Positions 9,690-33,060 of a DNA stretch of 41,037 nt are shown piece after piece. Both the position numbers and the translations under genes were made by a program. Where the stretch lies: the NCBI GenBank assembly GCA_964016885.1, contig CAXHJY010001435.1:1-41037 (forward strand), given 5' to 3'. Each line of letters starts with the position of its first letter. Positions within the stretch are counted from its first letter, which is position 1. The notes under the pieces were generated by a model that searched no databases, was not told the origin of the DNA, and worked only from the letters and a program-made list of their open reading frames with translations. The DNA is from Eledone cirrhosa. Its lineage: Eukaryota.

Positions 9690-10188
9690 ATAAAAACAAA
9701 TAACGAAACGAAATTAAATTTCGTTTCGCTTCTAACTCACTTTTGTATGACTGACGCTTAAACAATTAAGTTAAAGTGTACATCTACATATGTATACGGA
9801 AGTATTAGTATGCATATAAATACACACATGTATACATATGTACATGTACTCAGCTTTTCACTAGACACTTTACAGTGAGTGTCAGCTAGTCTGTATGTAA
9901 CCACACAGGCGGACCGGGTTTTAGAGTCATACGAGTTTTCAAGGAAACACATTTCCTCTATTCTCCAGAGGGCCAGACAGGAACATTGGACTAGTTTCGA
10001 TGTTATTACATCTCATCAGCAATATTTACCCATCTTCCGGCTTCTCTGGAGAATTGTAAAAGCACATATCGTTATATGCTTTTTCTATGAAAATTAGTAG
10101 TGGGTAGACTAATTTGCATAGAACGTGAGTCAGTGTACGCACCGGTTCAGCGGAAACGATTTAATTTCGTTTCGTTATTTGTTTTTAT
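9690..10188 (-). mobile_element. ~500 bp non-coding hammerhead-bearing element with 30 bp terminal inverted repeats, inserted in a TA array
   Basis: ataaaaacaaataacgaaacgaaattaaat (9690-9719) is the exact reverse complement of 10159-10188. Internal HHR and several hairpins. Confidence 0.8.
9982..10026 (-). ncRNA. Minimal type I hammerhead ribozyme (best-preserved copy)
   Basis: Minus strand: aatattg-CTGATGA-gatgt aata acatc-GAAA-ctag-TC-caatgtt. 7 bp stem I, 5 bp stem II starting G-C, palindromic CUAG in place of stem III, GUC site. Confidence 0.9.
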
Positions 10189-10194
10189 CGTTTG

Positions 10195-11921
10195 TATATA
10201 TATATACATATATACATATATATACATATATATACATATATATACCTATATACATACATATATATATACATACATATATATATATATACCTATATACATA
10301 TATATACCTATATATATATATACATATATATATATATACATATATATATATATACATATATATATATATACATACATATATATATATATACATATATATA
10401 TATATACATATATATATATATACATATATATATATAGACATATATATATATATATATATACATATATATATATATATATATATATATACATATATATATA
10501 TATATATATATACATATATATATATATATATATATACATATATATATATATATATATATATATACATATATATATATACATATATATATATATACATATA
10601 TATATATACATATATATATATACATACATATATATATATACATATATATATATATACATATATATATATATACATATATACATATATACATATATATATA
10701 TATATACATATATATATATATATACATATATACATATATATATATATATACATATATATATATATATATACATATATATATATACATATATACATATATA
10801 TATATATATACATATATATATATATATATATACATATATACATATATATATATATATACATATATATATATATACATATATATATATATACATATATATA
10901 TATATACATATATATATATATATACATATATACATATATATATATATACATATATATATATATACATATATATACATATACATATATATACATATATATA
11001 TATATACATATATATACATATATATATATATACATATATATACATATACATATATATACATATATATACATATATATATATATACATATATATATATATA
11101 CATATATATATATACATATACATATATATACATATATATATATATACATATATATATATACATATATATATATACATATATATATATACATATATATATA
11201 TACATATATATATATATACATATATATATATATACATATATATATATACATATATATATATATACATATATATATATATACATATATACATATACATATA
11301 TATACATATACATATACATACATATATACATATACATATATATATATACATATATATACATACATATATACATATACATATATATATATACATATATATA
11401 TATATACATATATATATATACATATATATATATATACATATATATATACATATATATATATATACATATATATATACATATATATATATATACATATATA
11501 TATATATACATATATATATATATACATATATATATACATATATATATATATACATATATATATACATACATATATATATACATATATATATATATACATA
11601 TATATATACACATATATATATACATATATACATATATATATACATATATATATATATACATACATATATATATACATATATATATATATACATACATATA
11701 TATACATATATATACATACATATATATACATATATATATATACATATATATACATATATACATATATATACATATATATACATACATATATATACATATA
11801 TATATATACATATATATTCATATATACATATATATACATATATATATATATACATATATATATATATACATATATATATATATACATACATATACATACA
11901 TATATATACATACATATATAT
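10195..11921. repeat. (TA)n/CA microsatellite
   Basis: Direct read. Confidence 0.97.
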
Positions 11922-12560
11922 ATGGTGGCTGCCAACTCGTTTTCGAGTACGGCCACTACTTTACATCCATGTAGGATAACCCCTACCGAAGCGCTGAACG
12001 AGTGTGACTTTTTAGTCCAGCCAGCGACTTGAAACCTCTGGTACAAACACTACACCTGTGACAATTATTGACACATAGTGCTAGGCCCATGGTAGGACAA
12101 TTATTGACACATAGTGCTGGGCCCATGTGAGGACGAGTGCAGAGAGATCTCCAGATATAAAGCAATGCCTGTGCCGTGAAGCTTTTATAGTGAGCAAAGG
12201 CACTGCACAAAGCCAGTCCCACTCTCTTAACCAAGATGCTATTTACCAAAAAGAAGAACAAGTCAACATCATTGGATACCATCAGGGTTGCAGGTGTTAT
12301 ATCAGAGTTTTCCTTCTCCTAGAATTCTGCCTTGACTAAGGCTAAAGGGGTCATCTCTCCCGGTGATTTTGGATGGCCATTGACTCTTAAGAGCTCCTTT
12401 GCCCTTTGACAGGTTTTGTTTTTAGTCCTGCAGGATGTCCAAAGTCACCCTCCTCACCAAGAAACCTTGGTGGGGTTGCCAGTTTAGTCGCCAACGAACC
12501 GACCATGAGACAGGTTGTACTGGGATACATGTTACCAGTAGCACCAACTGGTGACCTGAC
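11922..12560 (-). mobile_element. Non-autonomous, internally deleted RTE-like element, copy B (36 bp internal tandem duplication from 12060)
   Basis: Paralogue of 6345-6958. Encodes remnant [19 protein letters not shown] (C2H2-like finger typical of some RTE ORF ends). gacaattattgacacatagtgct occurs at 12060 and 12096. Confidence 0.72.
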
Positions 12561-14150
12561 ATAAAACATATATATATATACATATATATACATACATACA
12601 TATATATATATATACATATATATACATACATATATATATATATACATACATATATATATATACATATATATACATACATATACATATATATACATACATA
12701 TATATACATATATATACATACATATATATATATATACATATATATACATACATATATATACATATATACACATACATATATATACATACATATATATATA
12801 TATACATATATATACATATATATACATATATACATATATACACATATATACATATATACACATATATACATATATATACATATATACATATATATACATA
12901 TATATACATATACATATATATACATATATATATATATATACATATATATATATATACACATATATATATATATACATATATATACATACATATATATATA
13001 CATATATATATATATACATATATATACATACATATATATATATATACATATATACATATATATACATATATACATATATATATACATATATATATACATA
13101 TATACATATATATATACATATATATATATATACATATATATATACATATATATATACATATATATATATATACATATATATATATACATATATATATATA
13201 TACATATATATATATACATATATATATATACATATATATATACATATATATATATATACATATATATATATACATATATATATACATATATATATACATA
13301 TATATATACATATATATATACATATATATATACATATATATATACATATATATATATATACATATACATACATATATACATACATACATACATATACATA
13401 TATATATATATACATATATATATACATATATATATACATATATATATATATACATATACATACATATATACATACATACATATATATGTGTATATATATA
13501 TGTGTATATGTAAGTATATATATATATATGTATGTATGTATATGTATGTATATATATAATGTATATGTATGTATATATATATATATGTATATATACATAT
13601 ACATACATATACATATATACAATACATATACATACATATACATATATACAATACATATATACATATATATAATACATATACATACATATACATATACATA
13701 TATACAATACATATATACATATATATATATACATATATATAATACATATATACATATACATATATATAATACATATACATATATATAATACATATACATA
13801 TATATAATACATATATACATATACATATATATAATACATATATACATATATATATACATATACATATATATACATTACATATACATATATATACATATAT
13901 ATACATATATATATACATATATATATATATATACATATATATATACATATATATATACATATACATGTATATACACACATACATGTATATACACACATAT
14001 ACATATATATATACATATATATATATATATACATATATATATATATATACATATATATATATATATACATATATATATATATATATATATACACACATAT
14101 ATATATACACATATATATACACACATATATATATACATATATGTGTATGT
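12561..14150. repeat. (TA)n/CA microsatellite with an inverted (TG-containing) patch at ~13487-13590
   Basis: Direct read. Confidence 0.96.
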
Positions 14151-14414
14151 ATCTCTTAGTCTTAGATTCTTCCGTGCTGTTCGGCACATCGAGCTGGACA
14201 TGCTCACCAACATCCAGAGTTGACATTGCACTCAGTGCTCCTGTGGGTGCACCTACATGGACATACTGGAAGAGGAAGACCAAGGTTAACATATGTTGAT
14301 GCCCTAAGGACAGACACTGGTCTGTTGGAGACACAGGACATGGCAGCGATAATGAGGGACAGAGACCGCTGGAGAGAACTCGTCCATGGATCTCGGGAAT
14401 TTTACCCGCCCTAA
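14151..14414 (+). mobile_element. RTE-like LINE extreme 3' fragment (second family)
   Basis: [18 protein letters not shown]...[19 protein letters not shown]...[11 protein letters not shown], stop at 14412-14414. Confidence 0.8.
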
Positions 14415-32490: not shown

Positions 32491-32538
32491 TAAAAATGGA
32501 CGTTATATATATATATATATATATAACGTCCATTTTTA
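32491..32538. repeat. Perfect 48 bp palindrome centred on a (TA)n run
   Basis: taaaaatggacgt-(ta)n-acgtccattttta. Confidence 0.92.
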
Positions 32539-32764
32539 TTATATTTATATATATACTTAAATATAAGTATGTGTACGTACATACATATATGTATACAGAC
32601 GTACTGTAGTATGTATATATACATAAATGCACACATATATATGTACGTATGGATAAACCGAACACTTATTATAATGCTCGGTGTGTTTGTAAACAAACAT
32701 CCCGAATTAAGCGGTACAGTGTCTAGCAACCATCGTTGCTCATTTGTTCAACACTGACAAAGGA

Positions 32765-32807
32765 ACGCTGTACTACTTTCAAGCTTATTAGCTATCGTCA
32801 GCAACGT
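32765..32807 (-). ncRNA. Minimal type I hammerhead ribozyme within an element at ~32640-32938
   Basis: Minus strand: acgttg-CTGACGA-tagct aata agctt-GAAA-gtag-TA-cagcgt. 6 bp stem I; same AAUA loop and downstream gttcct as the 9982-10026 copy. Confidence 0.8.
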
Positions 32808-32937
32808 ATACCTTCCTGCCAGATGGTTGAACGTCTGAAAGTATATACTTTTCTTATGCATATTAACGGCTGAGCAGCCTAATTTGCATATCGAGTGAGT
32901 TAATTGGCTGGGGTACCGAAAACGATAAACGGAAAAA

Positions 32938-33060
32938 TATAATATATAATATATATAATATATAACTATATATAATATATAATATATATAATATATATAT
33001 AATATATAATATATATAATATATATATAATATATAATATATATGATATATAATATATGCA
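32938..33060. repeat. (TA)n/TAA microsatellite
   Basis: Direct read. Confidence 0.95.

Follow-up and report, generated by a model that had tools for sequence, protein, structure and literature searches.

The closest described relatives of the elements considered here are hammerhead repeats of animal genomes. Newt satellite 2 is a hammerhead tandem repeat with an internal small nuclear RNA (snRNA)-type promoter read by RNA polymerase II (Pol II) (Coats, Zhang and Epstein 1994, as cited in PMC2220036), and the schistosome Sm-alpha satellite is a hammerhead repeat with an internal RNA polymerase III (Pol III) promoter (Ferbeyre 1998, as cited in PMC2220036). Strong transcription of retrozymes has been reported in animal tissues. 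The newt promoter reportedly includes an octamer, and the Sm-alpha promoter is said to be of the tRNA-like A/B-box kind. The hallmarks of Penelope-like elements (PLEs) are partial tandems, inverted 5' copies, and microsatellite targets (PMC8557442). Here, we describe three elements, each with an octamer upstream of a hammerhead ribozyme, in a 41,037-nucleotide stretch of Eledone cirrhosa DNA (assembly GCA_964016885.1, contig CAXHJY010001435.1, positions 1 to 41,037 of the forward strand; referred to as the window), together with the genomic families to which they belong.

The elements are non-long terminal repeat (non-LTR) retrozymes, a class already known; what they add is a probable internal snRNA-type promoter made of host words, for which newt satellite 2 is a precedent. 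Our leading explanation, to which we give slightly less than an even chance, is that these non-LTR retrozymes are likely copied by a PLE and probably have an snRNA-type promoter of their own, with Pol II the more probable polymerase.

Results

The window elements belong to abundant families of non-LTR retrozymes

Comparison with genomic copies and folding resolved the three elements, which represent families F1, F2, and F3, into the following parts.

9690..10160, minus strand: element 1, one permuted F1 unit (471 bp), its 3' end running into (TA)n (family comparison)
10149..10193, plus strand: 5' piece of the F1 unit in inverted orientation (unit positions 390-435; copy comparison)
10109..10120, minus strand: 12-mer box TATGCAAATTAG of element 1, containing the octamer; the word is identical to one in a host U6 promoter
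10071..10076, minus strand: TATA-like word of element 1, 44 nt past the box start
9960..10054, minus strand: outer stem around the ribozyme of element 1 (10054-10044 paired with 9970-9960; fold)
9983..10025, minus strand: canonical type I hammerhead of element 1; predicted cut between 9989 and 9988
14473..14722, plus strand: element 2, a damaged, 3'-truncated F2 copy (unit of ~322 bp; family comparison)
14562..14573, plus strand: 12-mer box TATGCAAATGAG of element 2; the word also occurs in the promoters of a host U6 gene and of RNase MRP
14600..14605, plus strand: TATA-like word of element 2, 38 nt past the box (44 in intact F2 copies)
14623..14716, plus strand: outer stem of element 2 (14623-14637 with 14702-14716; fold)
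14650..14693, plus strand: type I hammerhead of element 2, helix I damaged; predicted cut after 14687
32554..32936, minus strand: element 3, slightly under one F3 unit (~430 bp), flanked by AT-rich arrays (family comparison)
32879..32890, minus strand: 12-mer box TATGCAAATTAG of element 3
32870..32873, minus strand: TCAG of element 3, 26 nt ahead of its TATA-like word and weakly resembling the proximal word of host U1/U2/U4/U5
32842..32847, minus strand: TATA-like word of element 3, 43 nt past the box
32746..32832, minus strand: outer stem of element 3 (32832-32826 with 32752-32746; fold)
32765..32807, minus strand: type I hammerhead of element 3, loop 3 mutated; predicted cut between 32771 and 32770

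The octamer ATGCAAAT lies at 10119 (minus), 14563 (plus), and 32889 (minus), and downstream of it are the CUGANGA boxes at 10019 (minus), 14656 (plus), and 32801 (minus), at distances of 100, 93, and 88 nt for elements 1, 2, and 3, respectively; all of the motifs quoted for the three elements in an initial annotation of this DNA were found in place. Of four octamers in the whole window, the fourth (40719) has no hammerhead core downstream, and further hammerhead cores at 5738 (minus), 33245 (minus), and 33388 (plus) have no octamer upstream. The per-site chance of an octamer within the 30-nt range is ~0.001; the elements are related, so the three cases cannot be counted as independent. The octamer hairpin and the outer stem that had been proposed folded in all three elements (z versus shuffles of −6.4, −3.5, and −2.6). 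Relative to its family, element 2 lacks 6 bp between octamer and TATA, can no longer form the first pair of helix I, and is truncated at the 3' end, and element 3 has the loop GTAG where other F3 copies mostly have CTAG. Only short, unremarkable reading frames overlap elements 2 and 3. A scan of element 1 with Rfam HH9 gave an E value of 2.9e-5 and 28 bits, under the gathering score of 52; the 150 Rfam matches listed across the whole window were set aside as repeat driven and under gathering scores.

Searches of the host genome (3.0 Gb, with plentiful TA arrays) were made with exact patterns. The pattern box-N60-90-core-N10-24-GAAA gave 26,090 matches, compared with 0 for the reversed control pattern, so further copies with the same motif order and spacing exist in great number. 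Together with the helix covariation described below, this bears out the proposal of a noncoding, ribozyme-bearing mobile family tied to TA arrays: the retrozyme families are genuine, conserved in structure, and present in very high copy number. First-look candidates numbered 1234 for F1, 2715 for F2, and 1279 for F3, and among the 40 scored in each family, the best copies had identities of 99 to 100%, 90 to 93%, and 96 to 98%, respectively. The tandem unit is 469 bp in F1, ~322 bp in F2, and ~430 to 505 bp in F3. F1 matches recur at multiples of 469 bp across ~19 kb on C1; arrays are present in F1 and F3, and F2 has partial tandems only. An element is a single permuted unit with TA junctions, with neither LTR nor protein, and the short noncoding tandem units range from monomers to multimers. 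The initial description of three divergent elements is to be corrected in that F1 and F3 can be aligned (66 to 78% identity over 49 to 220 nt). Copies continue through the predicted cut site, often beyond one unit, from which we infer that their template was a circle or an uncut multimer.

Other families extend the set. F6 to F9 are older and were found with patterns that fix the box; by eye, their upstream blocks link F2 and F3. F10 is an old hammerhead family (L240 to L268) with a box-to-TATA spacing of 47 to 48. F5 is young, with a 312-bp unit, 1,136 pattern matches, the loop CGCG, and copies both in tandem and inverted, inserted in the same manner as those of the other families; it has CCAG 27 nt before its TATA-like word, and the octamer box was not found in the F5 unit in either orientation. 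As separate observations, a T run stands directly after the ribozyme in F10 (L240 to L268), followed by TTTACAG-G, which resembles a splice acceptor, and a degenerate piece at 5696 to 5815 (minus) of the window resembles F5.

The ribozyme is a canonical type I hammerhead

The ribozyme of the elements has a 6-bp helix I, a 4-bp helix II, and a loop 3 that is a 4-nt palindrome, CUAG, UGCA, or CAUG depending on the family. Such a fold is termed the canonical metazoan form, most active as a dimer, and not minimal (PMC4209133), and the label "minimal" used in the initial annotation was therefore dropped. Dimeric cleavage is treated in PMC6155905; in Xenopus, cleavage was reported in only one of nine dimers (Li et al. 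2026, 10.64898/2026.07.22.740005). In a set of 13 copies chosen by hand, 92.9% of helix cells were paired, 10 of 13 pairs had two-sided changes, and the covariation score was 0.73, compared with 0.24 for shuffled copies and at most 0.12 when slid; the count of covarying pairs alone does not exceed shuffles (53 of 500). The core, helices, and palindromic loop of a type I hammerhead are conserved with covariation, in agreement with the structural conservation suggested from the three window copies.

Host snRNA promoter words are present in the elements

The Pol III promoters of the host were represented by three U6 promoter types, the best U6atac locus, and the single RNase MRP gene. In these five types, the box TATG(C/G)(A/T)AAT(G/T)AG, which is TATGCTAATTAG in one U6 type, lies at −77 to −79 and TATA lies at −30. 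The three window elements carry the 12-mer box letter for letter, identical to the U6 and MRP words. At that position, all 19 of the U1, U2, U4, and U5 loci scored, many of them near-identical, have at least four mismatches to the box. In all of these 19 loci, YCAG, a word chosen by eye from them, lies at −55 to −58, and near −30 there is a TATA-like word. The RNase P gene (L148), in which the box was not found and YCAG lies at −66 from the model start, was used in neither class. The two classes of host snRNA promoter (L061, L062, L063, L131, and L139 versus L073 to L076, L140 to L147, and L270 to L279) look unusual: in the Pol III genes the octamer-containing 12-mer is close in, at −78, and the Pol II genes combine a TATA-like word near −30 with YCAG at −57, so the host TATA box seems not to separate the Pol II from the Pol III snRNA class. 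In vertebrates, the TATA box separates the two.

The box-to-TATA spacing is 43 to 44 in F1 to F3 (38 in the damaged element 2), 4 to 5 bp under that of host Pol III genes; of the families, only F10 falls within the host Pol III spacing. A pattern of box and TATA at host spacing, specified without the ribozyme, gave 286 matches versus 8 for the control. Eight of the 30 loci fetched had an exact CTGATGA core 95 to 125 nt downstream and five more had a near-exact one, and the matches listed mostly belong to F10. Separately, three single loci with the 12-mer and a TATA-like word (L113, 1462-1670, which also has a 9-T run; L187; and L206) may be either host Pol III genes not yet annotated or old copies of the elements.

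The octamer and TATA had been described initially as parts of two RNA hairpins. Both are paired in F1 to F3; since the words match those of host snRNA promoters, a DNA promoter is the better reading. In F1 to F3, the box is predicted to pair with a downstream partner, which in several F6 to F10 copies is upstream or weak; constancy of the box while its partner shifts favors a DNA word over a fixed hairpin, with the reservation that F6 to F10 were selected on the box.

The predicted promoter is more probably of the Pol II type

A matrix for the proximal word was built from 15 Pol II loci, and the site 25 to 29 nt before the TATA word of the elements was scored. Scores were 4.4 for F3, 6.5 for F6, 8.9 for F9, 1.5 to 4.3 for F8, and 3.1 for F5, which had been found without selection for the proximal word. 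Positive levels of this kind are reached by ~0.2 to 8% of background registers, and host Pol III genes score −3 to −9. A weak match to the proximal word (YCAG) 26 to 27 nt before TATA is the best or second best site near TATA in F3, F6, F8, F9, and the F5 unit, and F1, F2, and F10 score below zero there. Predicted starts are at C/AG in F2, F3, F8a, and F9, like U1 (C/A), and host Pol III genes start at T/G. Runs of 5 to 7 T occur inside units; Pol III terminates at T runs and would not easily pass 5 to 7 T. Because of the proximal-word scores, the C/AG starts, and the T runs, Pol II is ranked first, and the element promoter would be read more probably by Pol II than by Pol III. A plain U6-type Pol III promoter had been our first reading and was lowered by the spacing, the T runs, and the comparison with U1, U2, U4, and U5.

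The alternative that survives best keeps the element and its life cycle and gives it an internal U6-type (type 3) Pol III promoter; we consider it unlikely but a serious contender. Transcription would usually stop at a T run 35 to 50 nt before the next box, and rare read-through would yield the unit RNA. In its favor, the 12-mer was found at promoter position only in host Pol III genes, F10 has their spacing, and the units F1a and F3b have their sole run of at least 5 T ~45 to 50 nt before the next box. It sits poorly with the shortened spacing in the three window families and with predicted starts that are mostly C/A, not T/G. Moreover, the 5- to 7-T runs, which in many F10 copies come right after the ribozyme, would stop Pol III before a whole unit was made.

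Several results weigh against the preferred reading of a self-carried, more probably Pol II, promoter. The proximal word scores negatively in F10 and in the families to which window elements 1 and 2 belong, F1 and F2 (−2.6 to −4.8); elsewhere, its scores are under most host leave-one-out scores (1.6 to 14.9). The box-to-TATA spacing is 43 to 46 in most families and 47 to 49 in host Pol III genes, and no scored Pol II gene has the box at its place, so the combination copies no host promoter examined. The box is not at promoter position in 14 further U6 matches and in 7 of 8 U6atac loci, which we read as putative processed pseudogenes from the look of their flanks. The older families were selected on the box, and its conservation there is by construction. 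In F1 to F3, the box is paired with a probability of 0.5 to 0.9, and the partner strand compensates for a T-A to G-C change in the box; the box of host promoters also pairs (0.4 to 0.7) in a wider fold. F5 speaks most clearly against a required octamer: it spreads without the box, so spread does not depend on the box. In a side observation, dispersed U6 and U6atac copies with altered 5' ends (L117 to L128 and L132 to L138), beside TA arrays or other repeats, are probably retroposed.

Some of these points fit an explanation without any promoter, in which the words would be RNA hairpin arms for folding or for recognition by PLE proteins, or would be inherited passively, and the arrays would be transcribed by host read-through. 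Whole units fold strongly as circles (z of −7.7 to −11.7, 25 shuffles), and the box-bearing families may all share one ancestor; the pairing of the box and TATA words in F1 to F3 and the spread of F5 point the same way. Structure alone, however, would not lead one to expect a 12-nt match to a U6/MRP word of fixed position with TATA at near-host distance, and the word stays while its pairing partner changes. We regard this explanation as rather improbable.

Insertions are of the Penelope-like type

For F1, 7 of 9 distinct places had adjoining copies in both orientations, as did 11 of 19 loci for F2 and 7 of 13 for F3, and 3' ends run into TA repeats at all 14 F1 ends examined and at 16 of 19 F2 loci. 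The copies are circularly permuted, often tandem, and often accompanied by an inverted 5' piece, and they end in (TA)n, as PLE insertions do; the inverted 5' piece and the microsatellite target of PLE-type insertion are both present.

A PLE was also found next to an element. At L043, the 5' end of an F3 copy abuts a PLE reading frame with Pfam RVT_1 and GIY-YIG matches, both running in the same sense. The PLE family of this locus has 8,641 candidates and an intact-length open reading frame (ORF) of ~900 amino acids (aa) with a reverse transcriptase (RT) plus a GIY-YIG at the C terminus. PLE ends lie mostly in TA repeats, and CGTTTAT followed by AT repeats was seen at 8 of 18 printed PLE 3' ends and likewise at 6 of 15 printed F3 loci. 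From these features, a PLE likely mobilizes the elements. The link is circumstantial, which also counts against our explanation: L043 is a single case and may have arisen when a retrozyme inserted into an older PLE copy. Three side observations concern PLE loci. The junction of PLE and F3 at L043 (~1455-1470) has a 3-nt shared word, a possible template switch; at L130, a PLE reading frame adjoins a retrozyme copy after the ribozyme; and PLE copies at L169 to L171 have open frames of 846 to 909 aa and are arranged in tandem and inverted.

The initial annotation suggested that the elements might be solo pseudo-LTR (pLTR) derivatives. That they are solo pLTRs or 3' fragments of an autonomous PLE would agree with the match of insertion pattern and target to PLEs (PMC8557442), with the pLTR homology reported for 24 of 57 Xenopus retrozyme families (Li et al. 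2026, 10.64898/2026.07.22.740005), and with the PLE-F3 junction at L043. Yet the copies are permuted tandem units, and they do not have the minimal hammerhead, without the helix III loop, of a PLE solo pLTR. Such a minimal ribozyme is held by the 3' repeat of the PLE tested, in which the octamer box was not found (2 to 4 mismatches at best, 18 loci). Comparison of this repeat with six retrozyme units gave short low-complexity matches only and no alignable similarity; thus, homology to the pLTR of an ORF-bearing PLE was not found with the one PLE family compared. Among loci fetched in an earlier part of the analysis, clear PLE coding motifs occur in L043 and L130 only. These comparisons do not support a solo-pLTR origin from the tested PLE family, and we think such an origin very unlikely. 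The view of element 1 as a miniature DNA transposon bounded by terminal inverted repeats is scarcely credible and was rejected, since the ~40-bp inverted repeats flanking it in the window are only apparent ones due to the inverted 45-bp F1 piece, the inverted piece varies in length, position, and inversion point among copies, and F1 units form head-to-tail arrays.

Other repeats in the window

Further repeats were noted in the window. An inverted pair of hammerhead-like cores at 33060 to 33500 (33245, minus, and 33388, plus) is probably the inverted end of another Penelope-type element. Long inverted repeats lie inside TA arrays at 645 to 970 and 39319 to 39508; copies of the latter occur at further loci, and it may represent the 3' end of a PLE together with its inverted piece. 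By eye, related copy pairs nested in TA arrays are 6353-6955/11930-12563 and 1282-2107/33860-34720. Other repeats in the TA arrays (7343-8371, 40130-41037, and 34998-35342) include fragments like the RT of long interspersed nuclear elements and, among nested repeats, a tRNA-like short interspersed nuclear element, labels that were also given by eye.

Discussion

If the elements are indeed PLE-copied retrozymes with a promoter of their own, a life cycle can be proposed. The octamer box, proximal word, and TATA-like word would start transcription ~30 nt past TATA, 15 to 30 nt before the ribozyme core. One unit, with the promoter words inside, would be excised by two ribozymes in dimers or arrays and then ligated into a circle. 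The RT and endonuclease of a PLE would then nick (TA)n and, primed at TA-like sites in the circle, copy across the cut site; the products would be permuted copies, longer than a unit or tandem, with the promoter again ahead of the ribozyme. The hairpins would be a compact RNA fold built around a fixed DNA word.

A more specific proposal, which we hold only tentatively and consider somewhat doubtful, is a radiation of retrozymes with a chimeric snRNA promoter, in which the octamer box of Pol III genes would be combined with the proximal word and TATA register of Pol II genes inside an RNA circle. If this is true, every insertion would rebuild a self-transcribing unit, and a working promoter of the external type would be heritable by lying within the circular RNA. 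Together with newt satellite 2, it would suggest that snRNA promoters have been captured repeatedly and independently, and it would answer in general terms how circular-RNA elements without proteins come to be transcribed. The candidate is testable, with an 80-bp block, a predicted start, tens of thousands of copies, two natural spacings, and one octamer-free family, and a compact host U6-type promoter could have practical use.

The initial annotation did not know this layout as described. The layout was likewise not found in the literature searched, a scope that excluded subscription journals, Dfam, Repbase, and bioRxiv supplements, and the "octamer" of PMC6466107 refers to RNA multimers. The class is described, as non-LTR retrozymes, and newt satellite 2 is a precedent for the promoter. 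With metazoan non-LTR retrozymes (Cervera and de la Pena 2020, PMC7229834; Li, Clavereau and Pollet 2026, 10.64898/2026.07.22.740005), the elements share noncoding tandem units of a few hundred base pairs, a canonical type I hammerhead, low GC, the range from monomers to multimers, and PLEs as the proposed mobilizing partner. Published units are 170 to 400 nt, which units of 430 to 490 bp here exceed, and a term search of the main texts of these two papers found no description of an element promoter. Some Xenopus retrozyme families have pLTR homology (Li et al. 2026), whereas none was seen here with one PLE tested. Endonuclease-bearing PLEs (PMC4209133, PMC8557442) are alike in their partial tandems, inverted 5'-truncated copies, (TA)n targets, and ribozyme in the repeat; unlike them, the elements have no ORF, a canonical rather than minimal ribozyme, and no similarity to the pLTR tested.

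Among host promoters, the elements have the 12-mer box in common with the type 3 Pol III promoters (U6, U6atac, and RNase MRP) and are weakly like the Pol II snRNA promoters (U1, U2, U4, and U5) in the proximal word and its distance to the TATA-like word; the combination of words and the spacing of 43 to 46 match neither class. The Sm-alpha satellite is likewise a hammerhead repeat with an internal promoter and differs in that its promoter is a Pol III one. Newt satellite 2 resembles the elements as a hammerhead tandem repeat with an internal snRNA-type promoter, predicted in the present case. Here, the octamer word is that of host Pol III genes, stands beside a TATA-like word, and is known from sequence alone, and dispersed PLE-type insertions with 5' inversions are documented.

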